DNA from: Botryllus schlosseri
Taxonomy: Eukaryota
Assembly (NCBI GenBank): GCA_051294905.1
Contig: CM119371.1
Coordinates: forward strand, 24,926,001-24,990,000
Reading direction: 5' to 3'
Length of the DNA stretch: 64,000 nucleotides
How positions within the stretch are numbered: the stretch's first letter is position 1; each line of letters starts with the position of its first letter. The notes under the pieces are model-generated. The model worked only from the letters and a program-made list of their open reading frames with translations, had not been told where the DNA came from and searched no databases. The position numbers were made by a program, and so were the translations under genes. Below are positions 2,280-42,156 of this stretch, piece by piece.

Positions 2280-5200
2280 CGGTGTTGAATATGTATCAAG
2301 TAGATAGTCATGTGAATGAGCCTTTGTTAATGTGTATATCGAAAATTATTATATATGATGGCATAGTTCAGTCGTGACAAATGACCGATCGTGTTCTAAG
2401 TATTTCCTCGCTATTGATTGCTAGCTGGATAATACTTTCAGTTCGGATTATTCGCACCTTCCGTACCGCTGTTTCGCACCTATAGAATAGTCTGCTGTTC
2501 ACAGTCACAACAAGAATCACAAGTATACACATTATACATTCATTGTATTTATTACTCTGAAATCAAACTCTTCACAAAAGCACGCACAATCGTATCATTA
2601 ACTTTTTTATCATCACCAAAATTATTCAAGTATTCCTTCAAAAAGGTGTGAAATAGGTTGCAAATCCCGCGATCGCTGACGATATAACACCTCAGACATA
2701 GCGATCACGCGCGACGTTATGTTACATACATACCGATTGCCACAAGGTAATATTTTGATAGTTTGGCACGGAACTGGATTTCACCGGTAAGATTTAATAA
2801 GTAACGAATAACAGAACTGCCACCGGTGGGACTTGAATACCAACAAATTGTCACTTATTTCTACTCTAACCGTAATCCTTTGCGAAGTTAACGCTCATTC
2901 GAAAAGGCGTGAAATAATTTTAAAATCCTACGACCGCTCACAGGATAATGCCTCAGACATTGCGACCCTCGTGATTTCGTGTTACAGAGATACCGATCAC
3001 TCACAAGGTAATATTTTGGTAATTAGCCCGTCACAGAACCGTCGTAGACGGCGATTCGTTTTCACACCTTGGAATAGCGATTGACTTTAGTCGAGGAACG
3101 AGAATCATGATAATACTCAATCGCGGTGGTATTTCGTCAACTTGAAACTCACTACAAAACTCAAGTTGAATCGTATCCGAATGCGTAAATTTATCACCTT
3201 GACATCAAGATAATATTATTCAAAAGTCCGTAAACATGGTACTGTCTTATATCAATAATATTAAGAATGTTGATCGCTTGATTGTCGGATTATTCACTCG
3301 TTGATTTGAAACAAACATTGAAACGCACAACTCTATCTGGTCTATAATTATTTTTTTACAACTGAGTTTCTGAAAATGCTATCATTATCACACCTCGAAA
3401 TTTTACCGTGTTAGAACACACAAGAGAGTCAAGCACAAAAACATTCACATGTGTTAAACCTAGTTTTCACTTATACTTGATTATATTACTAAAACTTGTA
3501 AACTATATTAATTCATCCTGGTGAACACGAATAGTGTTGCTCGCTTGTAATATTCACGTACTGATATGAATAATAACAACTCATGAGACCCTACAACTTT
3601 AATAACGAGCTGGTTACGAAACTGGAAAGGTAAACTCTATTCGTCTCAACATCTCAACATCTTACAACACTCGAAAGGGTCAATTACGAAACCACCGCCA
3701 AGTAAACCCGTTTGTAACTCACCCAATCAACTCAAACAGTATCAGTATGAAAACACCCAAGCATACACGAGTCCATACAATCACTAAAACCTAACGTCCG
3801 TAACAAGCTCGGCTGTATTCATATCCCTACGACGGGTCTTTTTTTTTCAACTGTAAAAGTCGTTACTATTTCGCAAGACAAAGTAATTACTACTCGATAT
3901 ATTTTGTAAGATAAAAGTAATTTCTACTCGGTGCAGGTGACTTGAGATTAACACATTACATTTAAGTATACGAGATTTGAATGTCTGACCAACGTAGTTG
4001 AGAATTCATTTCTTACAATCGAACGCTGGTGTTATATTCGAAGTTATCATGCTGTAAACATAAGGATTGACACATTGATTTGACATATGTTATAGTTGAT
4101 CATGACTTGAATATTAAATTATTTGCGTTAATTAGACACGGCGTTGTGGCAAATGTTATGACAGCAACAAACTTTTCAGTGCCATTGTTCTTAACATATT
4201 AAGTTGTGAAACTATACGTGTCTGAAATGTTCTTGATTGGAGAATTACTCCACCTCGATAAAAATCACTCTGCGCATCGCGATATCAGGAAATATTTTAC
4301 AAATGTAATTGTTTCCAGTAACCAAGACTAAAGATGAAACAGCAATATCGGTATTATTACATTCAACAACCAGTACAATTATTAAAATCTATCGTTTGCG
4401 ATAAACAACGCTAAAGATGCAATAATTCCATTATTCATACATTGAACATCCGATACAAAATGCTTTATTATCCCGATTCGCAACGGGTAATTGAAACGAC
4501 TAAGTGTAGAGTCAGTATATCACAATGACACGTCGTTACTATTGAATCCAGCAATTGATACGATTTATTGCCGGGATTTGTGACAGCGCATTGAAACATA
4601 CACAACTTACAGAGTGTGAAAATATCACTTTGGGTATCGAGTACCCTTTGAAGCGCGCAATCAATACATAATTCCAGTTGCACTCTCTAAGACATTGTGA
4701 AGTCTACGGATTTACACTTCAAGACTTTGATCAACACAGAAGCAATTTGGAATATCTTTACTGGACGCATCCTATTCAACTAGACTTGAGTATACGAAAA
4801 ACTCATAGCATTAACAAAATCGCAATAGGCGCTACACTGAAATTTACAAAATGTGTTTGTATTCTTGCTCAAAGTAGTGATCATGAATTATCATTTGAAT
4901 CTTCTAAAGTAATTGTAATCGTAAAACCAAACTTGCGAAAGTCATTACCATAACAAAAGAATATTGTAGGTTGCTTGCTAATTGTATGCCGGAAATATTT
5001 GTAGAACGCTCACGACCAAAGAAATCGGAAATTGTCATTCATCAAAGTAAATGTCGTCACAATACTCTGCCACTAAAAGACGTTACTCGTATGTGATTGA
5101 ATCGCCGGTAATTAACTCGCTAAATCAAACCCTAAGAAATTTCACTCACTCATCGGATATTAAACAGCGTCGCTTAATCGGTGTAGTTCGTTTTTTTCTA

Positions 5201-5951
5201 AATACAAATCATACCTAGCCAACAGAAAACAATTTTCACTCACTCGGTAATGAAAACAAGTGGTGGGTCTCCATTCGATATTTTGTTTGTGTCAAATACT
5301 TTGCAATGAACACATTTGAGTGGTTGAGCTTTACATCATCAAGCTGTCATTTTTAAATCAAGATTTCGGTCAACTTGTAAATGTATCATTTAACTAACCG
5401 ACATTTGGTGATTCGTGAACATACCAAACGATACACATCCACCTCCGATCTTAATTTCCATCATCGTAATAATCGAAGTACATTTCTTTCGAATTCGTAA
5501 CAACCGGCTTTTCTGTGACATGATAAATTTTTGACAAGTTATGCTTAGAAGATTGGTTGCATATCTCGAAAAATAATATACCGCTCATATTGATACTGTT
5601 ACTCGGTATTTTTCCCGTTGTCGATTTTCAAACGAGTAAAATTTATTACTTGAGTTTCTCCGCTTACTATATGTAAATGTAAACTCAGTCGTCTTTTAAC
5701 ATCACAAATACATTGATAAAAAGTAGGCAATCAAACGCTACAAGTTTAACTTTTGTAGGATGTGTATGATTACCCCACGCAACTCATTTCTTACCAAAGG
5801 TATATGAAATATATTCATGGTACACGAAAATACTCGATATTCCCATACTACGAACCTGTACAACGATTGGCGGTGCTTTCAACTGTTTCGATAACTCAAG
5901 AACTTTATTGTCTGAATGGATGTTCATGCATCTTAATAATCAAATAGTTCA
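2280..5951 (+). repeat. Left arm of the outer inverted repeat
   Basis: Pairs with 7257-9652 and 23011-24285, with scattered substitutions (e.g. ORF 5762 MYDYP vs ORF 7261-7446 MYDYS). Confidence 0.95.
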
Positions 5952-6859
5952 ACACAGAACTAGTATTAACAGAAACATCAGAGTTGTCTACACAAAAGTT
6001 TGTATGTGTACAGTATGCGAATACCATGTGTAAGTCCAGCACAATTGTGGTATACATCCGAGTTTAGTTAACACAAATTTATTACAACGGAGCCACGAAA
6101 ACTTTCGTGAAAGAAAAGCATACTCACTTCTGAGGGTTATGTCAATGCCATAGCAGTAAATCAAAAATATTCCTAACCCTTTGCACACCAGTGACAAATC
6201 ATACAACAAACATTTTTTGTGAGTCGAATTGTTGTTCAGCGTCAAGTCTACCTGTTGAATAGTGCATTAAAACAACACAGTCACAATTCAATTAAAACCA
6301 CGAATCTATTTTCATTTCGTCACAAACTGTCACATACAGAAAAAAAAAATTTCTTTCCCCAACGCATACTTGTGACCAATCGATTTCATTAAACACACAA
6401 CTCCATAAAAGTATTTACTTTCTACAACATAGACATTCCGATGTAGTCAAGAAATATTAAAACTGACACGACACGACTGAATGTAAGGGGATAGAAGTCT
6501 ATCGCATCGATTTACATGTGGTCTTCGCTACGGTTTCAAAAAACGAATCATCTATTTTGCATTGGTCGAGACCGAGCGAGCCAGTTACATGTATTCGCGG
6601 TAATGATTTTGCTTTTCATATGCGAATGATAGGTTTGCTACTCCGACAAATCAAATCAACAAACAACAACAATCTTCTGACGATCATAATAGCAATTTCA
6701 TTTGCCACCCCTTCGTAATTGTACACTCACGAAAAGTATATTGTACAACTCGGCAACTACGTTTAACAAGACCAATCACACTACCAGCGTTGAACACAAG
6801 ATACCTACCCAATTCAAAAATATCATACTGGTTTGGACAACTGACGTTTACCTGTGTAA

Positions 6860-7256
6860 AATTATCATTTTCACTTGGCGATCTATCCTTTCCTAGAGTA
6901 ACAAACCCTTGTCGTTTACAAATCTATTTTTTTTTCCTACAGCAAAAAACTATTTTCCCTTGGAAAAATACTTTTACGTAGAGTAACTAATCATTTTCTT
7001 TTGAAAATATATTTTCTCCCTGGGTAACAAACCCTTTTCGTTTGGAAAACTATCATTTACCTGAGTACCAATACCGTTTTCACTTGGCAGTCCGTCGTTT
7101 ACCTGGCTAAACATATCATTTTCACTTGGAAATCTATTTTTTCCCAGAGTAAGAAACCTTTTTCACTTGGAAATATATTTTTTCCCGGGTAACAAACCTT
7201 TTTCACTTGGAAATATATTTTTTCCCCGGGCAACAAACCTTTTTCGCTTGGAAATG
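6860..7256 (+). repeat. ~41-bp tandem array (TTTTCACTTGGAAATMTATTTTTTCCCNGGGTAACAAACC-like) in the outer element
   Basis: Repeated degenerate units; same unit as 14640-15075. Confidence 0.9.
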
Positions 7257-9652
7257 TGAACTATTTGATTATTGAGATGCATGAACATCCATTCAGACAA
7301 TAAAGTTCTTGAGTTATCGAAACAGTTGAAAGCACCGCCAATCGTTGTACAGGTTCGTAGTATGGAAATATCGAGTATTTTCGAGTACCATGAATATATT
7401 TCATATACCTTTGGTAAGAAATGAGTTGCGTGGAGTAATCATACACATCCTACAAAAGTTAAACTTGTAGCGTTTGATTGCCTACTTTTTATCAATGTAT
7501 TTGTGATGTTAAAAGACGACTGAGTTTACATTTACATATAGTAAGCGGAGAAACTCAAGTAATAAATTTTACTCGTTTGAAAATCGACAACGGGAAAAAT
7601 ACCGAGTAACAGTATCAATATGAGCGGTATATTATTTTTCGAGATATGCAACCAATCTTCTAAGCATAACTTGTCAAAAATTTATCATGTCACAGAAAAG
7701 CCGGTTGTTACGAATTCGAAAGAAATGTACTTCGATTATTACGATGATGGAAATTAAGATCGGAGGTGGATGTGTATCGTTTGGTATGTTCACGAATCAC
7801 CAAATGTCGGTTAGTTAAATGATACATTTACAAGTTGACCGAAATCTTGATTTAAAAATGACAGCTTGATGATGTAAAGCTCAACCACTCAAATGTGTTC
7901 ATTGCAAAGTATTTGACACAAACAAAATATCGAATGGAGACCCACCACTTGTTTTCATTACCGAGTGAGTGAAAATTGTTTTCTGTTGGCTAGGTATGAT
8001 TTGTATTTAGAAAAAAACAAACTACACCGATTAAGCGACGCTGTTTAATATCCGATGAGTGAGTGGAATTTCTTAGCGTTTGATTTAGCGAGTTAATAAC
8101 CGGCGATTCAATCACATACGAGTAACGTCTTTTAGTGGCAGAGTATTGTGACGACATTTACTTTGATGAATGACAATTTCCGATTTCTTTGGTCGTGAGC
8201 GTTCTACAAATATTTCCGGCATACAATTAGCAAGCAACCTACAATATTCTTTTGTTATGGTAATGACTTTCGCAAGTTTGGTTTTACGATTACAATTACT
8301 TTAGAAGATTCAAATGATAATTCATGATCACTACTTTGAGCAAGAATACAAACACATTTTGTAAATTTCAGTGTAGCGCCTATTGCGATTTTGTTAATGC
8401 TATGAGTTTTTCGTATACTCAAGTCTAGTTGAATAGGATGCGTCCAGTAAAGATATTCCAAATTGCTTCTGTGTTGATCAAAGTCTTGAAGTGTAAATCC
8501 GTAGACTTCACAATGTCTTAGAGAGTGCAACTGGAATTATGTATTGATTGCGCGCTTCAAAGGGTACTCGATACCCAAAGTGATATTTTCACACTCTGTA
8601 AGTTGTGTATGTTTCAATGCGCTGTCACAAATCCCGGCAATAAATCGTATCAATTGCTGGATTCAATAGTAACGACGTGTCATTGTGATATACTGACTCT
8701 ACACTTAGTCGTTTCAATTACCCGTTGCGAATCGGGATAATAAAGCATTTTGTATCGGATGTTCAATGTATGAATAATGGAATTATTGCATCTTTAGCGT
8801 TGTTTATCGCAAACGATAGATTTTAATAATTGTACTGGTTGTTGAATGTAATAATACCGATATTGCTGTTTCATCTTTAGTCTTGGTTACTGGAAACAAT
8901 TACATTTGTAAAATATTTCCTGATATCGCGATGCGCAGAGTGATTTTTATCGAGGTGGAGTAATTCTCCAATCAAGAACATTTCAGACACGTATAGTTTC
9001 ACAACTTAATATGTTAAGAACAATGGCACTGAAAAGTTTGTTGCTGTCATAACATTTGCCACAACGCCGTGTCTAATTAACGCAAATAATTTAATATTCA
9101 AGTCATGATCAACTATAACATATGTCAAATCAATGTGTCAATCCTTATGTTTACAGCATGATAACTTCGAATATAACACCAGCGTTCGATTGTAAGAAAT
9201 GAATTCTCAACTACGTTGGTCAGACATTCAAATCTCGTATACTCAAATGTAATGTGTTAATCTCAAGTCACCTGCACCGAGTAGAAATTACTTTTATCTT
9301 ACAAAATATATCGAGTAGTAATTACTTTGTCTTGCGAAATAGTAACGACTTTTACAGTTGAAAAAAAAGACCCGTCGTAGGGATATGAATACAGCCGAGC
9401 TTGTTACGGACTTAAGGTTTTAGTGATTGTATGGACTCGTGTATGCTTGGGTGTTTTCATACTGATACTGTTTGAGTTGATTGGGTGAGTTACAAACGGG
9501 TTTACTTGGCGGTGGTTTCGTAATTGACCCTTTCGAGTGTTGTAAGATGTTGAGATGTTGAGACGAATAGAGTTTACCTTTCCAGTTTCGTAACCAGCTC
9601 GTTATTAAAGTTGTAGGGTCTCATGAGTTGTTATTATTCATATCAGTACGTG
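7257..9652 (-). repeat. Outer right arm, proximal part
   Basis: Reverse complement of ~3555-5951. Confidence 0.95.
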
Positions 9653-9679
9653 AGTAGTAGTATAGATCGGTCGCGAACG

Positions 9680-9910
9680 GCTATTGTTTCTTATGGGCGC
9701 GGCGGCGAGCGGCTGGGAAAACTCGTGGTGGCGAGCGGCTCTTATTTCTTATGGGCGCGGCGGCGAGCGGCTATTGCGTCTTATGGGTGCGGCGGCAAGC
9801 GGCTCTTATTTCTTATGGGCGGGGTCGCAAGCGGCTGGGAAACCCGGGGTGGCAAGCGGCTTTTATGTCTTATGGGTGCGGTGGCGAGCGGCTATTGTGT
9901 CTTGTGGTCG
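9680..9910 (+). repeat. GC-rich subterminal tandem repeats (26-32 bp; TCTTATGGGYGCGGCGGCRAGCGGCT)
   Basis: TTATGGG at 9691, 9749, 9781, 9813 and 9870; mirrored at ~22747-22977. Confidence 0.9.
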
Positions 9911-12900
9911 CACGGTAACCCTTTTCAGTATAGGGATCGCTCGCACGCGGCTTCGTTGTTGGCATGTCGTACTCCGTGTTGAATATGTATCAAGTAAATA
10001 GTCATGTGATTGGTCCTTTGTTAATGTGTATATTCCAAATTACGGCGAGTACGACAATGATATATCGTTATTCTTATGGACGCGGCGATGATTCGTACTT
10101 TCGGGTATAGGCTGCGGGTGGAATGTCGTACTTTCAACAAAAAAGACGTGAAAATAGTTTGCAAAATCTAGGAATTACTCGCATGGTAATGTTTGGGTAA
10201 TTAGATTATCACAGAGCCAGCGTAGAAGGCGATTCGAATATCAACAATAACCACGCTCACAAACTAACACTTCAAAAAGATGTGAAATATTTGTAAAATC
10301 CTACGATCGCCCACAAGATAACACCTCAGACATAGTCATCTTTCACGACTTGGTGTCATAGCCATACCGATCACTCACGCGGTGAAATTTTCGTAAGCAG
10401 TTTGGCACAGAACTTGATTTCACTCGTAAGATTTAATAAGTAACGAATAACAGACCGCCAGTGTCGGTAACTTGAATAGCGACAAATTGTCACTTATTTC
10501 CGCTCTAACCCTAATCCTTTGTGAAGTGAACGCTTATTCAAAAGGGTGTGATATAATTTTAAAATCCAACGACCACTCACCGGATAATGCTTCAGACATA
10601 GCAATCCCTCATGCCCGCTCACAAGGTAATATTTCGGTAATTAGTTTGTCACAGATCCGTCGCAGACGGTGATTCGAAAACCAACAATTTGTCATTTGCC
10701 CGCGATCGCTATATGTTTCACGCCTCCGGAATAGTGGCTGACTTTAGTTGCGTGATAAGATCCATGAAAATATTCAATCAATGCGTTAGTTTGTCAACTT
10801 GAATTGAAACTCACTACACAAATCAAGTTGAATCGTATTTGAATGTATTGATTCGACCCAACTCAAATCCTTTGACAAATCCTATTAACGCGATCTGTTG
10901 AATCGAACGTAACCTGAATATTACTGACGCCAAAATTAGCCCGCATCGGATTATTCACACATTCCGCACCGCTGTTTTCACACCTATAGAATCAATACCA
11001 ACTAGCTCAATGAGAATCAGGAATAACAAGTATACAATAATTGTATTTAATACTGAGAAATCAAACGCTTAACAAAAACACGCAACTAATCATTTGCCAA
11101 CTCTAGCATTACCAAAAAAATTCAGGCATTGTCGATTGAAAATCCTTGAGTCCATATCAAAAATGTTATAGTGCGGTGTCGGAATCCATTCGCGGGATGT
11201 ACTAAAGGTAAATTCAGATAATCCAAAATGAAATATTTGGACTTTGACATAGTCTGAATTGAAATAAATTGACAAACATGACTACCAACTTTCAATCCAG
11301 TCATATTTAGAATTAGATTTGAAACAAGTAATGAAACCTTACAACTCTATTCACGACTGAGTTTTCCGTTTGTCCAATAGAGTTTCAGTAATTACTATCG
11401 CGATATTTTAATGTGTTACTACACACAATCGAGTCAGTCAATGAAATACCACCTGTTGTAAATATTTCTAACTTGACAACCACTTGTGCATACCACGATC
11501 TAGTTGCGACGCGCTGAGTTAAATCGGAATATTTCAATCTATTTGTCGAAACCTTGAACAAGTTGTCTGGTTATTTTTTTGTTGCAATTGAGTTAACGGA
11601 AATAGTATTACGTCTCGACATTTTAACATCTTACCATACTCCAAAAGAGTCAACAAGGAAAAACCTTGTCACGTAAATCCGATTGTAACTCACCCAATCA
11701 ACTCACCAGTATCCGTATGGAAAGTAGTCAAGATTACGCAAGTACATACAATCGCTACAATCTAAAATCCATAGCAAGTTCGGTTGTAGTCATATACCGC
11801 CAACTCGTCTTTTTTGTTCAACTGTGAAAGTAATTACTACTCGGTATACCGTGTAACATAAAGTAATTACTACTCGGTGCACGCAACTTGAGATTGCCAT
11901 ATGTTGAGAATATACGACATTTGAAAGTCTGACCAACGTAGTTAAGAATTCATTTCTCACGATCAAACGCAGGCGTTATCTTGAAAATTATCATGATGTA
12001 AACATAAGGATTGACACAGTGATTTGACATATGTAATAGTTGATCATGACTTGACTATTAAATTATTTGCGTTAATTAGACCCGGCGTTGTGGTAAAGAT
12101 TATTGTGACAGCAACAAACTTTTCAGTACCATTGTTATTAACATATTGAGTTGTAAACTATGTGTGTCTAAAATGTTCTCGATTGGAAAATTATTCAGCC
12201 TTGGTACAAACCACGCAGTGTATTGTGGATATCAGGAAATATTTTACAAATGTAATTGTCTGCAGTAAACAAGACTAAAGATGAAACAACAATTTCCTTT
12301 GTTGAACAATAACCGGTGCAATACCTTATTGTCGGTGAGAATTGAAACACTTTCGCGCATTACCTGGTGTCAAGATATCACACTAGGTGAATTGACATAC
12401 CACCATTTGATTAATGCTTAATCCGTTCGCGTCATTTCACACACACTTTGATCATTACAAAAAAACAAATTGGAATATGTTTGCTAGGCACCACCTATTC
12501 AACTATACTTGAGTAATACAGAAACCTCTCAGCATTAATAAAATCGAAATGTGCGCTACACTGAAATCTACAAAATGTGTTTGTATTGCTGTTCGTAGTA
12601 GTGATATCGATTTGAACCTCCATCATCTAACCAAACTACTGAGAGTCGTTGTCAATTTACATGACGTTCACTGATTACATACTAGAACTATTTGTGCAAC
12701 GCACACGATCAGAGAAATTGGACATTTTTCCATTGCCATTCGTCAAAGTAAATGTCGTCACAATAATCAGTCACTAAAAGACCATATACTTGTATGTGAT
12801 TGAATCGCCGACAATTAACTCGGTAAATCAAACCCCTGAGAAATTTCACTCAGTCATTGGATAGGAAACAGCGTCGCTTAATCGGTGTGAGTCGTTTTTT

Positions 12901-14639
12901 CTAAATACTAATCATATCTGTCCAGCCAAGAACAATTTTCACTCACTTGGGTAACGAAACCAGTGCCCAATATCAATACAAGATATTTTCGTCACACAAA
13001 AATAATCAACTTCACTCGATATTCCCGTACTACGAAACTGTACAAAGGTTACATGTTTTTGTATGACATGGAATTAATACCGATCGAAGTAACCGTATTG
13101 GAAATAACTTTTAAACAAACACACTCTACGTGGTTAACATTCTCGTCGATTCTATTGTGATTAATGTATACTTCATGTGATCTGGATTCATTTCGATATG
13201 GCTAAACATTCAACCTCGACGGATACGAATTGTCACACACTCAAGTAATATCATACCAAATAGTTATTTACAAGACACAGAAAATTTGTTATGGTCGTTT
13301 CGACTTTATTACTGGAGATACTCATCACTTCGCTTAATACAATCTAGATTTAAACTCCATCGAACCTTTGGTGTCTATCGTTTTGCTGGATACGAATTAT
13401 GTTAGTCTAAGAGTACACAATTTTCACTATCTTGGGTTATGAACTCAGTGTGTTAGCGATCATTCAATATTTTGTAGTATCAACTAGCTACTTCGTAGGA
13501 TACGAATGATCATCCTCACAACTCTTACAAAAGTACGAAGGATATTTACATCACACAAAGTAATCGACTTTACTCGATATCCTCACACTACGAAACTGAA
13601 TGGTTGGTTTGACTCTAGAAACTGTTCTGATGTCACAAGAACTTTTTCATACGAATGGTTACGTATCTAAATATTCAAATAATCCAACACACGACTATAG
13701 TACTTACAGAAATATCATAGTTCTTGTAACAAAGTTGTATAAGTATAATGTTTATCGTAAGTCCTACATAGCCATGATATCCGTCCGAGTTTGACTTTTA
13801 GAAAACATTATACTGACATCGCGACATCTTTCGAAATTAAAACCACGGTGACTGCTTCAGAGACCTACCAATGATATTGCAGTAATACAGTTACTTCCAC
13901 AAAAGAGTATGTATTCGACTTGCTTACCACAAATCTAACGCACAAAACAATTTATTTTACTAACGAGAAGCGCCGAGCCTCACATCAAAACAACTAGAAA
14001 GTGGAACTATATTAAAAAACGTCGCTAACCTTTGTGCACCAGCTGTAAATCACACAAGCAACATGTTTCAAGATTCTGGTTATTGAAAAACGTTAAAGTG
14101 TTTCTCCTGCACCAAGTCGTTATGTTGACGAAAGGGTATATTGTAATACCATGATCGATTTGCATTCGTTGGTCACAAACTGTCACTACTCTAAATAATT
14201 ATTTTTCACTCAAACACAAAAGCATACTCGTCGCCAATCGTTTTCATCAAGCACGAGTTCAAGAAGCTTACTTACTACGACATGAATTGTTATTTTTATG
14301 TTGTGTAAATAGGTAATAATTTATTTTAGTAACACTACATCAACATCATCGAGTTGTGCGAATAGATTTACATGTGGTTTTAATCGAAGTACACAGCACG
14401 GTCTAATGTAGATTCATCTCTATTGTACAGCAACTCGGTAATCGAAATGCATTAACATTTAAACAACGATCTTGGTTCGTCACGCGAAAAATATCTTTAC
14501 TGTCACAACACTCTGATACTCTGTACAAGATGTGTAAATCCTTTTCACACTCATAATAATACACTAACGGGATACCGACGTCAAGCAACAACGTTTAACA
14601 ACATCACTGACACTGAACATACGATACCTGCACAAGTAA

Positions 14640-15075
14640 AAATATCATTTTCACCAGGAGGTCAGCCGTTACTTGTGTACAATTACGATTTTCCCTTGGG
14701 GGTTTAGCGTTACCCGAGTAACAAAACCATTTTCACTTGGAAATATATGTTTTCCCTCAACAACAAACGTTTTTCACTTGGAAATATATTTTTTCCCTGG
14801 GTAACAATCCTTTTTCACTTGGAAATCTATTTTTTCCCTGGGTAACAATCCTTTTTTCACTTGGAAATCTATTTTTTCCCTGGGTAACAATCCTTTTTCA
14901 CTTGGAAATCTATTTTTTCCCTGGGTAACAAACCATTTCCACTTGGTGGTCCGTCGTTTACCTGAGTAAAAATATCATTTTCCTTTTGAGATCCGACGTT
15001 TACCCAGTGTAACAATACATTTTCTCTTGGCCATCTAGCTTTTCCTAAAGTAACAAAACCATTTCATTTTGAAAT
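14640..15075 (+). repeat. 41-bp tandem array in the inner left arm
   Basis: CACTTGG at 14734, 14775, 14816, 14858, 14899 and 14940, with degenerate flanking units. Confidence 0.92.
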
Positions 15076-16348
15076 CTGACAAACACACCTGCCAATTTGG
15101 TATTTGTTGTATTGACGACAGTTTGAAATAGATTACAACGAACAGTGACGGAAATGTACACGGACTACCAGTTTCAAAGTATTCCCACATCAGTCGTATC
15201 ACATCAATATCATCGGTTAACCACATGAAATAACAATACGCCGTTGTACACGGAAATGCATGTTTTGGAAAATTGGACAATAGGCTTCGATAGGTCTGTG
15301 ATGTCCGGGTTCGTACTTTAGTTTTTGCACAGAGTCCATACCTCTTAATAAAACACCACCTCGACTTTGGTACCTGGCTGGTACATGGATAACGGTGGTC
15401 GGAAATCGATGAATATAGGTTCTCGTCGTGCTAACAGTTCCGGGCTACTTGTGATTTTTCTCACACATGTTTACTATATTGTGTCACTCTTTATTGGTCA
15501 ATACATATCCCATCGTTCAGTCTGAAATCGGAAACCCGAGCAAGTATTAACCGGATCCGGATATCAACTCTGAATCAAAAAACCAATGAAACATGTCACA
15601 CCCTGTGTTTCCATGGAAGTAACAAGACATTACACATCAAGTATACTTCGCGATTGTTCATAGATACCAAGTATTCGCGTAAACGAGGTGTGTGACATTA
15701 CATACATCATGGATAACATCATGGCCGGCATTACAAACATCATGGATGACAAATTCATGTTCTCAAGTCTCGTCATGAACCGACTCTGTACATTCAATGT
15801 GGGGTAGAGGACTTGGAGACAGACAAACACACATATTTGACCGTAACATGATCTAAGCACGAACCGACATGTATTCAACTTGGAGAAAAATGAGTCGCGT
15901 CGTATTTCACGAGATTACATCCCCTTTTGTGGTTCACACCTTGATTTTGCTTACATCGTGATCCAGACCTCGGAGTGTAGTAAAATCGGGCTATGTAGTT
16001 TAATTACTTGCTCACTCCCTGTGTGTTGGTGGTGGTCATACCCTGCAAACTTTTTTTTTTCTTAGAACGTAGTGTTTCGCCTTACATCAGTTGGTTCAAT
16101 GTATGTACCGAGTTGTGAAAGCTGCCGCTGTTTTGACTATGCGTCACAATCAATACTAAAACGGGAATTCGTTACTCGTTGAAACGTCGCAGTCAGACAT
16201 CGTTAACAGCGATTCCGCGTATGGAAATCTTAAATTCGATTGCGGTTTTGTAATGTAATCCGGGTTACTGTGTTTCTGTGGTGTGAAGACTAAATTCGTG
16301 TTGATCCCCCCTGCAAGAGTGCGATGTCTATTTCACACCTAGAGTTAT

Positions 16349-16355
16349 TATAAAA
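16349..16355 (+). promoter_or_regulatory. Candidate TATA box (TATAAAA) for the loop ORF
   Basis: Canonical TATAAAA ~120 bp upstream of the ATG at 16470, in the unique loop. Confidence 0.4.
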
Positions 16356-16469
16356 CGCATCTTCGAAACCATTGGTCTACTTCATCTGCTTGCATGTCGA
16401 AACGGACCATAACCACAAGACTCTAACCCACCACATTCGTGGTTTCAGTTGATCGTATCGAAGAATATC

Positions 16470-16745
16470 ATGTCCATCCGTTTTACCACCCACAGATTTC
16501 TCCATCCTCACACTTTAATGCTAAGACACAGACAAGATGCGGTTGTGGAAATATTGAAAATGAGAAAGCAGACCTTGGTGTCATTTGATTTGGATTTTAC
16601 ACCCGATGAACCCCTCATTCGTACTGCGCATTGGGGTGCGGATTCTATCGTCGATGTCGATGGAAAAGAAATGTACAGATTTGTTGGTGTCGTGGATATT
16701 CAACGAAAATCGGGGTACATGATTGTACGCGGTTACCGTATATGA
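16470..16745 (+). CDS. Hypothetical 91-aa protein (MSIRFTTHRFLHPHTLMLRH...GYMIVRGYRI) in the palindrome loop
   Basis: ATG in ATCATG context, intronless, wholly within the non-repeated loop. Globular-looking composition; upstream TATA; AATAAA at 17162. No family recognised. Confidence 0.45.
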   Translation: MSIRFTTHRFLHPHTLMLRHRQDAVVEILKMRKQTLVSFDLDFTPDEPLIRTAHWGADSIVDVDGKEMYRFVGVVDIQRKSGYMIVRGYRI

Positions 16746-16806
16746 CTGTGAAGATATCGCTATACATAACGTGCTGTTCACCGTATCGATCGCACCAACG
16801 AATATC

Positions 16807-19800
16807 CATGTAACGGTCAAATATGTGTGTTTGTCTGTCTCCAAGTCCTCTACCCCACATTGAATGTACAGAGTCGGTTCATGACGAGACTTGAGAACAT
16901 GAATTTGTCATCCATGATGTTTGTAATGCCGGCCATGATGTTATCCATGATGTATGTAATGTCACACACCTCGTTTACGCGAATACTTGGTATCTATGAA
17001 CAATCGCGAAGTATACTTGATGTGTAATGTCTTGTTACTTCCATGGAAACACAGGGTGTGACATGTTTCATTGGTTTTTTGATTCAGAGTTGATATCCGG
17101 ATCCGGTTAATACTTGCTCGGGTTTCCGATTTCAGACTGAACGATGGGATATGTATTGACCAATAAAGAGTGACACAATATAGTAAACATGTGTGAGAAA
17201 AATCACAAGTAGCCCGGAACTGTTAGCACGACGAGAACCTATATTCATCGATTTCCGACCACCGTTATCCATGTACCAGCCAGGTACCAAAGTCGAGGTG
17301 GTGTTTTATTAAGAGGTATGGACTCTGTGCAAAAACTAAAGTACGAACCCGGACATCACAGACCTATCGAAGCCTATTGTCCAATTTTCCAAAACATGCA
17401 TTTCCGTGTACAACGGCGTATTGTTATTTCATGTGGTTAACCGATGATATTGATGTGATACGACTGATGTGGGAATACTTTGAAACTGGTAGTCCGTGTA
17501 CATTTCCGTCACTGTTCGTTGTAATCTATTTCAAACTGTCGTCAATACAACAAATACCAAATTGGCAGGTGTGTTTGTCAGATTTCAAAATGAAATGGTT
17601 TTGTTACTTTAGGAAAAGCTAGATGGCCAAGAGAAAATGTATTGTTACACTGGGTAAACGTCGGATCTCAAAAGGAAAATGATATTTTTACTCAGGTAAA
17701 CGACGGACCACCAAGTGGAAATGGTTTGTTACCCAGGGAAAAAATAGATTTCCAAGTGAAAAAGGATTGTTACCCAGGGAAAAAATAGATTTCCAAGTGA
17801 AAAAAGGATTGTTACCCAGGGAAAAAATAGATTTCCAAGTGAAAAAGGATTGTTACCCAGGGAAAAAATATATTTCCAAGTGAAAAACGTTTGTTGTTGA
17901 GGGAAAACATATATTTCCAAGTGAAAATGGTTTTGTTACTCGGGTAACGCTAAACCCCCAAGGGAAAATCGTAATTGTACACAAGTAACGGCTGACCTCC
18001 TGGTGAAAATGATATTTTTACTTGGGCAGGTATCGTATGTTCAGTGTCAGTGATGTTGTTAAACGTTGTTGCTTGACGTCGGTATCCCGTTAGTGTATTA
18101 TTATGAGTGTGAAAAGGATTTACACATCTTGTACAGAGTATCAGAGTGTTGTGACAGTAAAGATATTTTTCGCGTGACGAACCAAGATCGTTGTTTAAAT
18201 GTTAATGCATTTCGATTACCGAGTTGCTGTACAATAGAGATGAATCTACATTAGACCGTGCTGTGTACTTCGATTAAAACCACATGTAAATCTATTCGCA
18301 CAACTCGATGATGTTGATGTAGTGTTACTAAAATAAATTATTACCTATTTACACAACATAAAAATAACAATTCATGTCGTAGTAAGTAAGCTTCTTGAAC
18401 TCGTGCTTGATGAAAACGATTGGCGACGAGTATGCTTTTGTGTTTGAGTGAAAAATAATTATTTAGAGTAGTGACAGTTTGTGACCAACGAATGCAAATC
18501 GATCATGGTATTACAATATACCCTTTCGTCAACATAACGACTTGGTGCAGGAGAAACACTTTAACGTTTTTCAATAACCAGAATCTTGAAACATGTTGCT
18601 TGTGTGATTTACAGCTGGTGCACAAAGGTTAGCGACGTTTTTTAATATAGTTCCACTTTCTAGTTGTTTTGATGTGAGGCTCGGCGCTTCTCGTTAGTAA
18701 AATAAATTGTTTTGTGCGTTAGATTTGTGGTAAGCAAGTCGAATACATACTCTTTTGTGGAAGTAACTGTATTACTGCAATATCATTGGTAGGTCTCTGA
18801 AGCAGTCACCGTGGTTTTAATTTCGAAAGATGTCGCGATGTCAGTATAATGTTTTCTAAAAGTCAAACTCGGACGGATATCATGGCTATGTAGGACTTAC
18901 GATAAACATTATACTTATACAACTTTGTTACAAGAACTATGATATTTCTGTAAGTACTATAGTCGTGTGTTGGATTATTTGAATATTTAGATACGTAACC
19001 ATTCGTATGAAAAAGTTCTTGTGACATCAGAACAGTTTCTAGAGTCAAACCAACCATTCAGTTTCGTAGTGTGAGGATATCGAGTAAAGTCGATTACTTT
19101 GTGTGATGTAAATATCCTTCGTACTTTTGTAAGAGTTGTGAGGATGATCATTCGTATCCTACGAAGTAGCTAGTTGATACTACAAAATATTGAATGATCG
19201 CTAACACACTGAGTTCATAACCCAAGATAGTGAAAATTGTGTACTCTTAGACTAACATAATTCGTATCCAGCAAAACGATAGACACCAAAGGTTCGATGG
19301 AGTTTAAATCTAGATTGTATTAAGCGAAGTGATGAGTATCTCCAGTAATAAAGTCGAAACGACCATAACAAATTTTCTGTGTCTTGTAAATAACTATTTG
19401 GTATGATATTACTTGAGTGTGTGACAATTCGTATCCGTCGAGGTTGAATGTTTAGCCATATCGAAATGAATCCAGATCACATGAAGTATACATTAATCAC
19501 AATAGAATCGACGAGAATGTTAACCACGTAGAGTGTGTTTGTTTAAAAGTTATTTCCAATACGGTTACTTCGATCGGTATTAATTCCATGTCATACAAAA
19601 ACATGTAACCTTTGTACAGTTTCGTAGTACGGGAATATCGAGTGAAGTTGATTATTTTTGTGTGACGAAAATATCTTGTATTGATATTGGGCACTGGTTT
19701 CGTTACCCAAGTGAGTGAAAATTGTTCTTGGCTGGACAGATATGATTAGTATTTAGAAAAAACGACTCACACCGATTAAGCGACGCTGTTTCCTATCCAA

Positions 19801-22800
19801 TGACTGAGTGAAATTTCTCAGGGGTTTGATTTACCGAGTTAATTGTCGGCGATTCAATCACATACAAGTATATGGTCTTTTAGTGACTGATTATTGTGAC
19901 GACATTTACTTTGACGAATGGCAATGGAAAAATGTCCAATTTCTCTGATCGTGTGCGTTGCACAAATAGTTCTAGTATGTAATCAGTGAACGTCATGTAA
20001 ATTGACAACGACTCTCAGTAGTTTGGTTAGATGATGGAGGTTCAAATCGATATCACTACTACGAACAGCAATACAAACACATTTTGTAGATTTCAGTGTA
20101 GCGCACATTTCGATTTTATTAATGCTGAGAGGTTTCTGTATTACTCAAGTATAGTTGAATAGGTGGTGCCTAGCAAACATATTCCAATTTGTTTTTTTGT
20201 AATGATCAAAGTGTGTGTGAAATGACGCGAACGGATTAAGCATTAATCAAATGGTGGTATGTCAATTCACCTAGTGTGATATCTTGACACCAGGTAATGC
20301 GCGAAAGTGTTTCAATTCTCACCGACAATAAGGTATTGCACCGGTTATTGTTCAACAAAGGAAATTGTTGTTTCATCTTTAGTCTTGTTTACTGCAGACA
20401 ATTACATTTGTAAAATATTTCCTGATATCCACAATACACTGCGTGGTTTGTACCAAGGCTGAATAATTTTCCAATCGAGAACATTTTAGACACACATAGT
20501 TTACAACTCAATATGTTAATAACAATGGTACTGAAAAGTTTGTTGCTGTCACAATAATCTTTACCACAACGCCGGGTCTAATTAACGCAAATAATTTAAT
20601 AGTCAAGTCATGATCAACTATTACATATGTCAAATCACTGTGTCAATCCTTATGTTTACATCATGATAATTTTCAAGATAACGCCTGCGTTTGATCGTGA
20701 GAAATGAATTCTTAACTACGTTGGTCAGACTTTCAAATGTCGTATATTCTCAACATATGGCAATCTCAAGTTGCGTGCACCGAGTAGTAATTACTTTATG
20801 TTACACGGTATACCGAGTAGTAATTACTTTCACAGTTGAACAAAAAAGACGAGTTGGCGGTATATGACTACAACCGAACTTGCTATGGATTTTAGATTGT
20901 AGCGATTGTATGTACTTGCGTAATCTTGACTACTTTCCATACGGATACTGGTGAGTTGATTGGGTGAGTTACAATCGGATTTACGTGACAAGGTTTTTCC
21001 TTGTTGACTCTTTTGGAGTATGGTAAGATGTTAAAATGTCGAGACGTAATACTATTTCCGTTAACTCAATTGCAACAAAAAAATAACCAGACAACTTGTT
21101 CAAGGTTTCGACAAATAGATTGAAATATTCCGATTTAACTCAGCGCGTCGCAACTAGATCGTGGTATGCACAAGTGGTTGTCAAGTTAGAAATATTTACA
21201 ACAGGTGGTATTTCATTGACTGACTCGATTGTGTGTAGTAACACATTAAAATATCGCGATAGTAATTACTGAAACTCTATTGGACAAACGGAAAACTCAG
21301 TCGTGAATAGAGTTGTAAGGTTTCATTACTTGTTTCAAATCTAATTCTAAATATGACTGGATTGAAAGTTGGTAGTCATGTTTGTCAATTTATTTCAATT
21401 CAGACTATGTCAAAGTCCAAATATTTCATTTTGGATTATCTGAATTTACCTTTAGTACATCCCGCGAATGGATTCCGACACCGCACTATAACATTTTTGA
21501 TATGGACTCAAGGATTTTCAATCGACAATGCCTGAATTTTTTTGGTAATGCTAGAGTTGGCAAATGATTAGTTGCGTGTTTTTGTTAAGCGTTTGATTTC
21601 TCAGTATTAAATACAATTATTGTATACTTGTTATTCCTGATTCTCATTGAGCTAGTTGGTATTGATTCTATAGGTGTGAAAACAGCGGTGCGGAATGTGT
21701 GAATAATCCGATGCGGGCTAATTTTGGCGTCAGTAATATTCAGGTTACGTTCGATTCAACAGATCGCGTTAATAGGATTTGTCAAAGGATTTGAGTTGGG
21801 TCGAATCAATACATTCAAATACGATTCAACTTGATTTGTGTAGTGAGTTTCAATTCAAGTTGACAAACTAACGCATTGATTGAATATTTTCATGGATCTT
21901 ATCACGCAACTAAAGTCAGCCACTATTCCGGAGGCGTGAAACATATAGCGATCGCGGGCAAATGACAAATTGTTGGTTTTCGAATCACCGTCTGCGACGG
22001 ATCTGTGACAAACTAATTACCGAAATATTACCTTGTGAGCGGGCATGAGGGATTGCTATGTCTGAAGCATTATCCGGTGAGTGGTCGTTGGATTTTAAAA
22101 TTATATCACACCCTTTTGAATAAGCGTTCACTTCACAAAGGATTAGGGTTAGAGCGGAAATAAGTGACAATTTGTCGCTATTCAAGTTACCGACACTGGC
22201 GGTCTGTTATTCGTTACTTATTAAATCTTACGAGTGAAATCAAGTTCTGTGCCAAACTGCTTACGAAAATTTCACCGCGTGAGTGATCGGTATGGCTATG
22301 ACACCAAGTCGTGAAAGATGACTATGTCTGAGGTGTTATCTTGTGGGCGATCGTAGGATTTTACAAATATTTCACATCTTTTTGAAGTGTTAGTTTGTGA
22401 GCGTGGTTATTGTTGATATTCGAATCGCCTTCTACGCTGGCTCTGTGATAATCTAATTACCCAAACATTACCATGCGAGTAATTCCTAGATTTTGCAAAC
22501 TATTTTCACGTCTTTTTTGTTGAAAGTACGACATTCCACCCGCAGCCTATACCCGAAAGTACGAATCATCGCCGCGTCCATAAGAATAACGATATATCAT
22601 TGTCGTACTCGCCGTAATTTGGAATATACACATTAACAAAGGACCAATCACATGACTATTTACTTGATACATATTCAACACGGAGTACGACATGCCAACA
22701 ACGAAGCCGCGTGCGAGCGATCCCTATACTGAAAAGGGTTACCGTGCGACCACAAGACACAATAGCCGCTCGCCACCGCACCCATAAGACATAAAAGCCG

Positions 22801-23004
22801 CTTGCCACCCCGGGTTTCCCAGCCGCTTGCGACCCCGCCCATAAGAAATAAGAGCCGCTTGCCGCCGCACCCATAAGACGCAATAGCCGCTCGCCGCCGC
22901 GCCCATAAGAAATAAGAGCCGCTCGCCACCACGAGTTTTCCCAGCCGCTCGCCGCCGCGCCCATAAGAAACAATAGCCGTTCGCGACCGATCTATACTAC
23001 TACT
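16807..23004 (-). repeat. Right ~6.2-kb inverted arm of the inner element
   Basis: Reverse complement of 9653-15850; includes the mirrored 41-bp array (~17582-18017). Confidence 0.97.
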
Positions 23005-23010
23005 TACGTG

Positions 23011-24630
23011 AATATTACAAGCGAGCAACACTATTCGTGTTCACCAGGATGAATTAATATAGTTTACAAGTTTTAGTAATATAATCAAGTATAAGTGAAA
23101 ACTAGGTTTAACACATGTGAATGTTTTTGTGCTTGACTCTCTTGTGTGTTCTAACACGGTAAAATTTCGAGGTGTGATAATGATAGCATTTTCAGAAACT
23201 CAGTTGTAAAAAAATAATTATAGACCAGATAGAGTTGTGCGTTTCAATGTTTGTTTCAAATCAACGAGTAAATAATCCGACAATCAAGCGATCAACATTC
23301 CTAATATTATTGATATAAGACAGTACCATGTTTACGGACTTTTGAATAATATTATCTTGATGTCAAGGTGATAAATTTACGCATTCGGATACGATTCAAC
23401 TTGAGTTTTGTAGTGAGTTTCAAGTTGACGAAATACCACCGCGATTGAGTATTATCATGATTCTCGTTCCTCGACTAAAGTCAATCGCTATTCCAAGGTG
23501 TGAAAACGAATCGCCGTCTACGACGGTTCTGTGACGGGCTAATTACCAAAATATTACCTTGTGAGCGATCGGTATCACTGTAACACCAAATCACGAGGGT
23601 CGCAATGTCTGAGGCATTATCCTGTGAGCGGTCGTAGGATTTTAAAATTATTTCATGCCTTTTCGAATGAGCGTTAACTTCGCAAAGGATTACGGTTAGA
23701 GTAGAAATAAGTGACAATTTGTTGGCATTCAAGTCCCACCGGTGGCAGTTCTGTTATTCGTTACTTATTAAATCTTACCGGTGAAATCCAGTTCCGTGCC
23801 AAACTATCAAAATATTACCTTGTGGCAATCGGTATGTATGTAACATAAAGTCGCGCCTGATCGCTATGTCTGAGGTGTGATATCGTCAGCGATCGCGGGA
23901 TTTGCAACCTATTTCACTCCTTTTTGAAGGAATACTTGAATAATTTTGGTGATGATAAAAAAGTTAATGATACGATTGTGCGTGCTTTTGTGAAGAGTTT
24001 GATTTCAGAGTAATAAATACAATGAATGTATAATGTGTATACTTGTGATTCTTGTTGTGACTGTGAACAGCAGACTATTCTATAGGTGCGAAACAGCGGT
24101 ACGGAAGGTGCGAATAATCCGAACTGAAAGTATTATCCAGCTAGCAATCAATAGCGAGGAAAGACTTAGAACACGATCGGTCATTTGTCACGACTGAACT
24201 ATGCCATCATATATAATAATTTTCGATATACACATTAACAAAGGCTCATTCACATGACTATCTACTTGATACATATTCAACACCGTGCGACAGATGCCTA
24301 TACCCGAAAGGGCGATTCACGGCCGCACCCATAAGAACACATGGCGAGTCACCAGAGACCGCGTAAGAATACATGACAGGCGAATCACCGCCACCGCCTA
24401 TAGCAAAAAAGGCGAGTCACGACCACGAGTTTTCACGGCGAGTCACCGCCACGAGCTATACCTGAAAGGGCGAATCACGACCGCACCCATAAGAACACAT
24501 GGCGACTCACCGCCTAGAGGGGGGTCTAAAAAGGCGAGTCCCCACCCCCGGTTTTCTGGCGAGTCACCACCCCGCCCATAAGAGCCCCATGCAAAAGGGG
24601 GTGTGGTCACGACCGATCATCTATACTACT
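23011..24630 (-). repeat. Outer right arm, distal part, with GC-rich subterminal repeats (~24295-24600) and terminus
   Basis: 23011-24285 is the reverse complement of 2280-3554. Repeated GGCGAGTCAC and CCCATAAGA units; ends CTATACTACT. Confidence 0.9.
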
Positions 24631-24689
24631 ACCGCATACGCAGCGTAGATGAAACTCCAACACTCAGCCGAGGTCGGACTCGAACTCGA

Positions 24690-30627: not shown

Positions 30628-32398
30628 CAGTGTTGTGATGACTCGAGTCATGACTTGACTCGAGTCAGACTCGAGTCACCTTTTTCGCATGACTAGACTT
30701 GACTCGAGTCACTTTGCAAAAATGACTTGACTTGACTTGACTCTGCGTATCAGAAATGAGGATTGACTCGTGACTCGGACCAAAATTCACGAGTCAATTT
30801 CAAGTCATCAAGTAATCGGTGTGGATTATTATTATTATTATAGGTAAAAACATTGGCATGAGTGGCGCTTATCACAACTGAAGGCTTTTTGCGCCACGGA
30901 CAGAAACAAGTTAAACGCTACAGAAAGTTCATGATATATAACTGAGATAGGTACACATGTGCACATAAAAAAGTTTTACAATATTCCTCGAGTCGATCTA
31001 ACATATTCAACAAGATATCGCAGTACTTGTGGATCAGTCAGTAGGGTTCGCATGTCAAAATTTACATTCTTCGACTCTGCATGGCGTCGTAAGCATTCTC
31101 TTTGATAGCGGTATTTTCTGCAATTCATGAGATAATGCTCTACGGTTTCCTCAATACCACATGCTTCGCACAGTTGCGAGTCGATGCATCCAATCTTGTT
31201 GAGATGGTGGTTTAGTCTGCAATGCGTCGTTCTTAACCGCAGCACAATCGAGTTTCCCAACCTTGTATCCATTTCAGATAGTCTGTCATGTACCGAGGGT
31301 CGCAGATCTTTGTACGCTCTCCCAGTATCTGTGGATTGATAGATGCGGTCCCATTCATCTTTGCAGCTCTTTAGCAAGTACGACCGTACGTCGGCGAGTG
31401 GGATGGCATGACTCCGGCGTATGTGTGTATTAGCAGCTCCCGCCCTTGCTAATTGATCTGCAGATTCATTACCGCGTATTCCGGAGTGTCCAGGCACCCA
31501 TACAAACGATATGGTAATTTCTGCTGTCCGCAACTGATGATTCAGCTCAATAATTTCATTCACCAGTGGATGAGGATTGACTCGTGACTCGGACCAAAAT
31601 TCACGAGTCAATTTCAAGTCATCAAGTAATCGGTGTGGATAAAAATCACTGTATCTTGCATATATTCGGATTGTTCGCAAAACGCTGGTGTAACCCGTGA
31701 GAGCGAATAATCATTCAAATATTGTGTGTTTCACTGAGTCTCGATTGTTCTCTCACAAAAAATTGACCGCAAACGAAGTGATCGTATCTTACATCTTACG
31801 TTGTCGTAAATCGAGTACGTAATAAAATAGCGAAATGTCTATTTCTGCTCTCTGTCCTTACCTTAACCAAACCTCTTGTTACATTGAAATCGAATATAGT
31901 TTATATAGTTCTCAACCATTGTCGCAGGCTCGATTTGTATCATTAATTTGTAAATGGGTAATGCATTGCATCTTATCAATTCGTTTGTCTATTCTCTATT
32001 TTGGCTGGTAACTTTAAACTGAGGCTATGCAAATACGTGGTTCAACAGTTCTACGTATATGTGAGAGATACAGCGTCTTCTTGCGAGGATATTCAACTCT
32101 ATATTCGTTCATTGGTTAGGAATTAATGACCACTCAATCTGTATTTCATTCAGCTAGCAGATTGCAATGACGTAATCATGCCTCATACTTCGAAAAGGCA
32201 ACTTGACTTGAAATGTGACTTGACTCGTGACTTGACTTGACTTGATTCGACTTGACTCGAGTCACATTTGAAAATCGAGTGACTTGACTTGACTCGAGTC
32301 ACATTTGAAAATCGATTGACTTGACTTGACTCGAGTCAAAATGTGCAATGACTCGAAATGACTCGTGACTCGAAGGTGGTGACTTGATCCCAACACTG
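30628..32398. mobile_element. hAT-type non-autonomous element with GACTCGAGTC/GACTT subterminal repeats; contains a LINE fragment
   Basis: TIRs CAGTGTTG...CAACACTG; 8-bp TSD CTTTGGGT/TTTTGGGT (7/8). Confidence 0.85.
30827..31569 (-). mobile_element. 5'-truncated RNase H-bearing non-LTR retrotransposon (LINE) 3' end
   Basis: Encodes the RNase H C-terminus (ISFVWVPGHSGIRGNESADQLA) and a CCHC-type finger (CEACGIEETVEHYLMNC); stop at 30976; (TAA)n tail; flanked by a 71-bp direct duplication. Confidence 0.9.
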
Positions 32399-42095: not shown

Positions 42096-42156
42096 TGTAG
42101 GTAAGGTCTTTGAAGAATGTAGGAGACAAAACGTACCTTTTCAACATAGACGCCAA

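Follow-up and report, generated by a model that had tools for sequence, protein, structure and literature searches.

The locus and its built-in empty site

We analysed a stretch of 64,000 nucleotides of the Botryllus schlosseri genome (the window; C1:24926001-24990000, C1 being contig CM119371.1 of assembly GCA_051294905.1, 495.5 Mb in total). Positions without a prefix are counted within the window. Two elements of one repeat family occupy positions 2280 to 24630, and one of them, the guest, lies within the other, the host. Both are long palindromes consisting of two inverted arms around a loop, and the guest palindrome entered the right arm of its host as one unit with a 6-bp target-site duplication. 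The guest probably belongs with the Maverick/Polinton elements as a non-autonomous relative, on evidence set out below. The features are as follows, with the strand given where one was assigned.

2280..5951: host palindrome, left arm, uninterrupted, truncated at 2280 and without the terminal ~345 nt (arm alignment)
3555..3560, minus strand: empty site, a single TACGTG (CACGTA on the plus strand), paralogue of the insertion site (sequence read, blastn)
5952..7256: host loop, 1,305 nt, with ~9 copies of a 41-nt tandem repeat at 6866-7255
7257..9646: host right arm from the loop to the insertion, 11 mismatches and 1 gap against the left arm
9647..9652, plus strand: target-site duplication, copy 1, TACGTG (sequence read)
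9653..23004: guest element, 13,352 nt, 5'-AGTAGT...ACTACT-3'
9653..15850: guest left arm, 6,198 nt, with subterminal 32/121-nt tandem repeats at 9678-9907
15851..16806: guest loop, 956 nt
16470..16745, plus strand: 91-codon open frame in the guest loop
16807..23004: guest right arm, mirroring 9653-15850 with 2 mismatches
23005..23010, plus strand: target-site duplication, copy 2, TACGTG (sequence read)
23011..24630: host right arm, distal part, of which 23011-24285 mirrors 3554-2280 with 12 mismatches
24286..24630: host subterminal repeat region and true terminus, with no partner in the left arm
24631..24636, minus strand: hexamer adjoining the host right terminus, TGCGGT read outward-in, centre CG

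The ends of the guest and both junctions were read directly from the sequence. The guest starts AGTAGTAGTATAGATCGG and its other end is the reverse complement of that start. With a slash marking the boundary between host and guest, the left junction (9647-9652/9653) reads ...TTCATATCAG TACGTG / AGTAGTAGTATAGATCGG... and the right junction (23004/23005-23010) reads ...CCGATCTATACTACTACT / TACGTG AATATTACAAGC.... The host left arm, taken as its reverse complement, reads ...TTCATATCAG TACGTG AATATTACAAGC..., with the hexamer present once (3560..3555) and the context otherwise identical. The host consequently carries its own empty site in the opposite arm. In two blastn local alignments, made without joining the sequences, host left arm 5951..3554 aligns to 7257..9653 over 2,398 nt (11 mismatches, 1 gap) and 3560..2280 aligns to 23005..24285 over 1,281 nt (12 mismatches). 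The host right arm thus consists of two segments that join precisely at the hexamer and together keep the order of the unbroken left arm. Two 6-nt flanks are identical by chance with a probability of 1/4,096, and a chance match is excluded here because 3.7 kb of host arm is colinear.

These results bear out most of what a first-pass annotation of this DNA had proposed, namely a single CACGTA at 3555-3560 in an uninterrupted left arm, a TACGTG duplicated around the inner element, colinear arms and an integrase-type insertion of the whole palindrome rather than recombination or misassembly. The last point is supported by the 6-bp duplication, the empty site and the colinearity, the duplication being the footprint of a DDE integrase-type staggered cut. 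The mirrored outer element that had been described is found for 2280-5951 and the right arm, but not at the end of the left arm, where the last ~345 nt and the terminus are absent. Overall, the nested insertion is confirmed as a real and textbook-clean case with a 6-bp duplication. A second nest, on C2, shows the same built-in empty site, its duplication GTCGCG being single in the opposite arm.

The host right arm extends to a true terminus at 24630 (AGTAGTATAGATGATCGG, minus strand), and the adjoining TGCGGT is presumably a copy of the host's own duplication. On the other side the host left arm ends at 2280, ~345 nt short and without a terminus, where it abuts unrelated dispersed repeats. A search of the window and the 20 kb upstream of it for the missing left end of the host turned up only the right end of a third family member. 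This member ends 1,372 nt upstream of the window, with its palindrome centre near C1:24917718 and its left arm disrupted; the 3.65 kb separating it from the broken left arm of the host are a mosaic of other dispersed repeats.

Target sites and nesting across the family

The terminus motif of the family, AGTAGTNNNNTAGATCG, has 657 + 657 occurrences on the two strands of the genome, compared with 9 + 16 for a reversed control. Sample 1 consists of the first 100 motif termini listed, all on C1 up to 40.56 Mb, with 1-kb outside flanks for the 98 that lie outside the window; the AGTAGT start of all 100 is built into the search pattern. Of these, 76 can be joined into 38 pairs, which span 3.3-33.8 kb with a median of 14.9 kb, and 24 are unpaired. 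The 6-bp duplication is identical in 35 of the 38 pairs and has one mismatch in the other three. Ten other copies were fetched whole, and all ten are palindromic with arms 97.6-100% alike, whereas a comparison from copy to copy gives no more than 79-84% likeness of the arms, over 36-84% of arm length. Host and guest are ~76% alike over ~2 kb.

Sample 2 was drawn from the two commonest terminus variants on the remainder of C1 and on C2 and C3, with one flank per event; it does not include 16 rows that lie on C4, nor the minus end of any pair. Its 77 termini resolve into 74 distinct events, one flank being common to three termini and another to two as a result of segmental duplication. Together with the 62 events of sample 1 this gives 136 events. 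The termini with identical flanks are C1:41602704, 41612265 and 41621794 (spacing 9.5 kb, three times) and C2:28571545 and 28683049 (111 kb apart, twice), and represent segmental duplications that carried the element end along. Another abundant repeat, present in one family copy (there at 5074-6255), matches the flanks of ~12 sampled events, for example C1:7626226/7639851, C2:20622045 and C2:34729697, and family members often lie in or beside it.

The insertion sites have a strong and simple preference. In the 38 reconstructed paired sites all information lies within the duplication, where the third position is C (27) or T (11) and never a purine, and the fourth is mostly G (27), followed by A (8). 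The target-site profile that the first-pass annotation had called for, built from all 136 events, shows a duplication centre of CG in 67, TG or CA in 41 and TA in 10, with a pyrimidine-purine step in 118 (87%). By position the counts are A 73 at -5, C 95 and T 34 at -4, G 91 and A 34 at -3 and T 66 at -2, giving the family target consensus N-A-C-G-T-N. The CG centre, found in 67/136, compares with a background CG of 4.4% (P ~4e-53). The TACGTG of the guest fits this consensus exactly, and the hexamer at the surviving end of the host is also CG-centred, as are three duplications around polymerase-carrying elements described in the next section. We infer that the enzyme is a DDE integrase making a 6-nt staggered cut centred on a pyrimidine-purine step, above all CpG, an identification that follows from footprint and kinship.

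The position of the guest inside a relative raised the question of self-targeting, suggested in the first-pass annotation, in which the machinery would prefer family DNA by its sequence or its silencing chromatin and nests would be purposeful. An event was counted as nested when its 1-kb flank matched at least 15 members of the 12-element family library up to the junction; flanks matching only one or two library members hit other transposons lodged in these and were not counted. Five of the 62 events of sample 1 are nested (the window guest, C1:101466, C1:16772825-16801530, C1:32997234-33010673 and C1:37404761-37420876), compared with only one of the 74 events of the independent sample 2 (C2:34462609). 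The pooled figure is 6/136 (4.4%), with 130 events outside the family, or 5/135 (3.7%) without the window case. Family cover on C1 is 1.5% from paired intervals and 1.9% when 7 kb is allowed per unpaired terminus; two of the six hosts have no motif-matching termini, so true cover may approach 3%. At covers of 1.5%, 2% and 3% the binomial P is 0.017, 0.056 and 0.225 for 6/136, and 0.054, 0.135 and 0.38 for 5/135, which is the fairer test because the window's case prompted the question.

Several points speak for self-targeting, namely the nested excess in sample 1 (P 0.002-0.038 at 1.5-3% cover), the third member just upstream of the window, which places three members within ~35 kb, and the further nest on C2, which was met by accident. 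Set against them are the single nest in sample 2 and the pooled test. Insertion depths from the host end are 1.6, 3.6, 4.4, 5.1 and ~7 kb, with 0.9 kb in the C2 nest outside the sample, and there is no fixed insertion site because the depths span 0.9 to ~7 kb. Enrichment of the target motif in family DNA was considered as a cause of nesting and rejected, the ratio of its density in family DNA to that in other DNA being 1.02. Clustering on C1 is weak (6 gaps below 50 kb, 4.2 expected). A case of true targeting also looks different: in the passages of PMC8547959 that treat them, 91% of type 1 Ngaro elements in Cafeteria lie inside endogenous virophages (EMALEs). These are likewise mobile elements nested in Polinton-like elements, whereas here the 4.4% is near the family cover. 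The family library cannot see insertions into helper coding parts, and when 17 open frames taken from four loci of a different Polinton clade were compared with all 177 flanks by tblastn, there was no match. Targeting in any strong sense is not supported, and purposeful nesting is unlikely. Chance is the best explanation for the guest's position inside a relative, with family DNA, ~2% of the genome, not selected against as a target.

Kinship with Maverick/Polinton elements

Published vertebrate Mavericks are described by Barreat and Katzourakis (2021, PMC8097293), in their account of the structure, as having 5'-(AGT)2//(ACT)2-3' ends and perfect 6-bp duplications and as encoding a polymerase, an ATPase, an integrase, capsid proteins and a protease. 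The guest has the 6-bp duplication and the (AGT)2...(ACT)2 ends and shares these ends with gene-carrying elements of the same genome. The latter were reached through Pfam PF04665, whose one match over the genome led to a polB/ATPase locus belonging to another Polinton clade, where a Walker-A ATPase is found together with the C-terminal half of a polymerase of the protein-primed type. With this polymerase piece as query, the genome gave at least 118 matches, 117 of 261 candidates having been scored. Four identity bands can be distinguished among them, and open frames of ~1,290-1,310 codons are common. Among the matches listed, 58 are at 38-43% identity, and five of these 58 lie inside terminus pairs (three on C1, one on C2, one on C3). 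The three on C1 are at C1:30845127 (pair 30838413-30854242, duplication CACGGG), C1:5934721 (pair 5923771-5942033, duplication GCCGAG) and C1:19607439 (pair 19598838-19616100, duplication TTCGAT). On C1, with all terminus variants listed there, the 38-43% clade is found in terminus pairs in three of five cases and other clades in none of nine. Only the 38-43% band has the termini of the palindrome family, and several Polinton lineages with other ends coexist in this genome. On C6, a terminus with a polB match 11.6 kb inward is followed by 1.74 kb that can be aligned with the guest's first 1,722 nt at 83.5%; the aligned stretch contains no open frame, and one end of this element is seen.

The guest itself is not an autonomous Maverick/Polinton. 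No open frame of 120 codons or more is present in guest or host, and none of 57 frames of at least 55 codons (one guest arm with loop, host left arm with loop) matches Pfam at E<=0.01. This includes any retroviral-type (rve) integrase in the guest. It also includes capsid, packaging ATPase and adenain-like protease, of which only the ATPase and protease are truly excluded, Pfam being weak on Polinton capsids. The guest has no gene for a protein-primed family B DNA polymerase, and no window position is among the 118 polB matches listed. No Rfam families or tRNAs were found in guest or host.

One frame stands out. The 91-codon frame of the guest loop has no Pfam match above cut-off, and it is open over its full length in nine of 11 other family elements at 59-73% amino-acid identity, partial in one and absent in one; it is also absent from the host. 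At the DNA level the likeness there is 72-81%. This frame may be their sole gene. Arrays of a 41-nt unit (CATTTTCACTTGGAAATCTATTTTTTCCC...) at 6866-7255, 14710-15076 and 17627-17939 adjoin the loop in both host and guest and may represent a conserved cis element near the palindrome centre, the remaining arms of host and guest being only ~76% alike. Outside the guest, the window contains a 1,379-codon frame at 38001-42140 (minus strand) with reverse transcriptase, RNase H and integrase, a Ty3/gypsy-type pol, and a separate 244-codon frame at 30976-31710 (minus strand) with an RNase H match.

Taken together, the Maverick ends, the 6-bp duplication and the Polinton-like first 1.7 kb without any Polinton gene identify the guest as a non-autonomous Maverick/Polinton derivative. 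Our reading, to which we give a probability of roughly 80%, is that it is a complete palindromic relative of these elements that was inserted whole into an older family member, most likely by a helper integrase acting in trans. In this mechanism the retroviral-type integrase of a helper Polinton would act on a palindromic satellite, cutting an N-A-C-G-T-N target with a 6-nt stagger and joining the whole palindrome so that TACGTG is duplicated.

Alternatively, the palindromes could be foldback-type elements that are moved by some other transposase and merely resemble Polinton ends. Foldback makes 9-bp and Galileo 7-bp duplications; Galileo belongs to the P superfamily, with a P-type transposase in autonomous copies. 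The 6-bp duplication seen here led us to reject the label of a foldback-type element. The same 17-nt terminus motif and 6-bp CG-centred duplications also bound polB-carrying elements, with 1.7 kb of terminal homology and with end motif and duplication length as published for Mavericks. What favours another transposase is that no integrase was found in the helpers, in a search that was uninformative, and that long, internally repetitive inverted repeats are typical of Foldback and Galileo in the descriptions given in PMC3573991 and PMC4168063. Overall, another transposase is very improbable.

Arm identity and comparison with known systems

The nest works as a clock for the arms. The guest arms differ at 2 of 6,198 positions (0.03%) and the host arms by 23 differences and one indel in ~3.7 kb (0.63%), 20 times more. 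The guest is present in one host arm only, and the same is true of the C2 nest. Arm divergence is greater in the older element, and no arm was copied onto the other since the guest arrived. Arms are near-identical at landing and then diverge in place. Copies differ from one another by 16-21%, while the two arms of any one copy stay close to identical, so equalisation probably takes place at each round of copying rather than in the chromosome. One candidate step is snap-back synthesis from one half; another is mismatch correction in the hairpin that a displaced single strand of such an element would have to form during protein-primed, strand-displacing replication. The odds that one or the other of these two is the main equalising mechanism are about even.

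Long-read libraries are known to go wrong by producing near-perfect palindromes, and public reads gave no independent support. An origin in fold-back chimeric reads, or in ectopic exchange between elements, is nevertheless the most remote of the alternatives: 2 and 23 differences separate the arms, 35 of 38 pairs have exact 6-bp duplications, the host arm keeps its colinearity to the base on either side of the guest, the loops carry a conserved open frame, and recombination would not duplicate a hexamer that is single in the opposite arm.

The following observations weigh against the insertion of a palindromic satellite by a helper integrase, or against parts of this reading. The helper integrase was not located: the Pfam rve model, for which 150 of 1,389 candidates were scored, has none in the five Polinton intervals, and all scored candidates look like integrases of LTR retroelements by their long open frames, which says nothing either way on helpers. 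Pfam PF03175 (polB) gave no match over the genome and likewise none in the controls, hence is uninformative. The nested excess in sample 1 alone (5/62) would fit a weak preference, two- to three-fold, for the DNA or the chromatin of the family. In the element at C1:16768420-16810257, which also hosts a 28.7-kb nested guest, mirror symmetry does not stop at the two termini but extends 3,138 nt (99.8%) into the flanks. There is no target-site duplication and the flanks are not a duplication. One half together with host flank looks like a recopy of the other made within the chromosome, by fold-back repair or break-induced copying, and such recopying can happen at least sometimes. Short public reads gave no usable check. 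In four of 24 listed runs, contigs at 9250-10050 are unitigs of 47-122 nt. One read record, probably from the source sample, spans 9624-9679 without difference, with sides of 29 and 27 nt (below the 31-nt bar), and the remaining three runs are without cover at 9574-9627. The nearest arm-specific differences, 9412/9414 and 23270, are too distant from the site for short reads.

A broader and more tentative proposal joins the two main results. This lineage may possess a sequence-reading integrase that acts at CpG-centred N-A-C-G-T-N, and its satellites may be heritable snap-back genomes that are made identical-armed at each copying and then decay; we hold this somewhat less likely than its opposite. 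If true, it would provide the first target motif for a Maverick/Polinton, with satellites outnumbering the helper ~tenfold. A nested transposon is ordinary. The nest described here is a clean natural experiment in which a 13-kb palindrome was integrated whole with a Maverick footprint, and from which it follows that the arms of such palindromes are not equalised once in the chromosome. The target motif is strong and simple for virus-like elements whose integration is generally described as sequence-independent, can be tested with purified integrase and can guide the search for young insertions. The lack of support for self-targeting keeps an attractive story from entering the literature. The kind of element is itself known as Maverick/Polinton, and the target motif and the drift of arms in place are useful additions. 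Apart from supplements, the literature yielded nothing on whole-element palindromic Polinton derivatives or a Polinton target motif, the nearest match being a preprint on 52-nt terminal palindromes of virophages.

Autonomous Maverick/Polinton elements are reportedly the subject of work by Kapitonov and Jurka in 2006 and by Pritham et al. in 2007, both cited in PMC8097293. The guest resembles Mavericks in its (AGT)2...(ACT)2 ends, perfect 6-bp duplication, size (13-15 kb), termini shared with polB-carrying elements of this genome and 1.7 kb of terminal homology there, and differs from published Mavericks in lacking polymerase, integrase, capsid, ATPase and protease genes. Published terminal repeats of Mavericks measure hundreds of nt to ~2 kb, whereas ~93% of the guest is one inverted repeat. 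By terminus motif there are ~657 palindromic elements, compared with 58 listed polB matches of the partner clade. Foldback and Galileo of Drosophila have other ends and their 9- and 7-bp duplications, and the arms here are mostly unique sequence. The likeness lies in very long, internally repetitive inverted repeats and in many copies without a coding region, as portrayed in PMC3573991 and PMC4168063.

Retroviral and LTR integrases share with the enzyme proposed here a weak palindromic consensus on a staggered cut. In its treatment of target sites, PMC4422553 describes that retroviral integrases favour central pyrimidine-purine steps, with a palindromic consensus and target bending. The centre preference here (87%) is far stronger than described there for retroviruses with 6-bp duplications, and CG is used over the more flexible TA (67 compared with 10 of 136), with the enzyme here being inferred. 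Ginger1 and Ginger2 show the same likeness; Ginger1 transposons, with a Gypsy-like integrase, insert at CCGG, which is also CG-centred, according to the portion of PMC2836005 on their insertion sites. For mavirus and the Cafeteria EMALEs, the passages of PMC8547959 on integration describe no sequence preference, unlike the N-A-C-G-T-N preference found here. Snap-back or copy-back genomes of the adeno-associated virus (AAV) type, as characterised in the relevant part of PMC8235507, are similar in being half genomes folded back, helper-dependent and with identical halves. Snap-back genomes are replication by-products in virions, while the palindromes described here are integrated and heritable, form subfamilies and carry a conserved loop frame.

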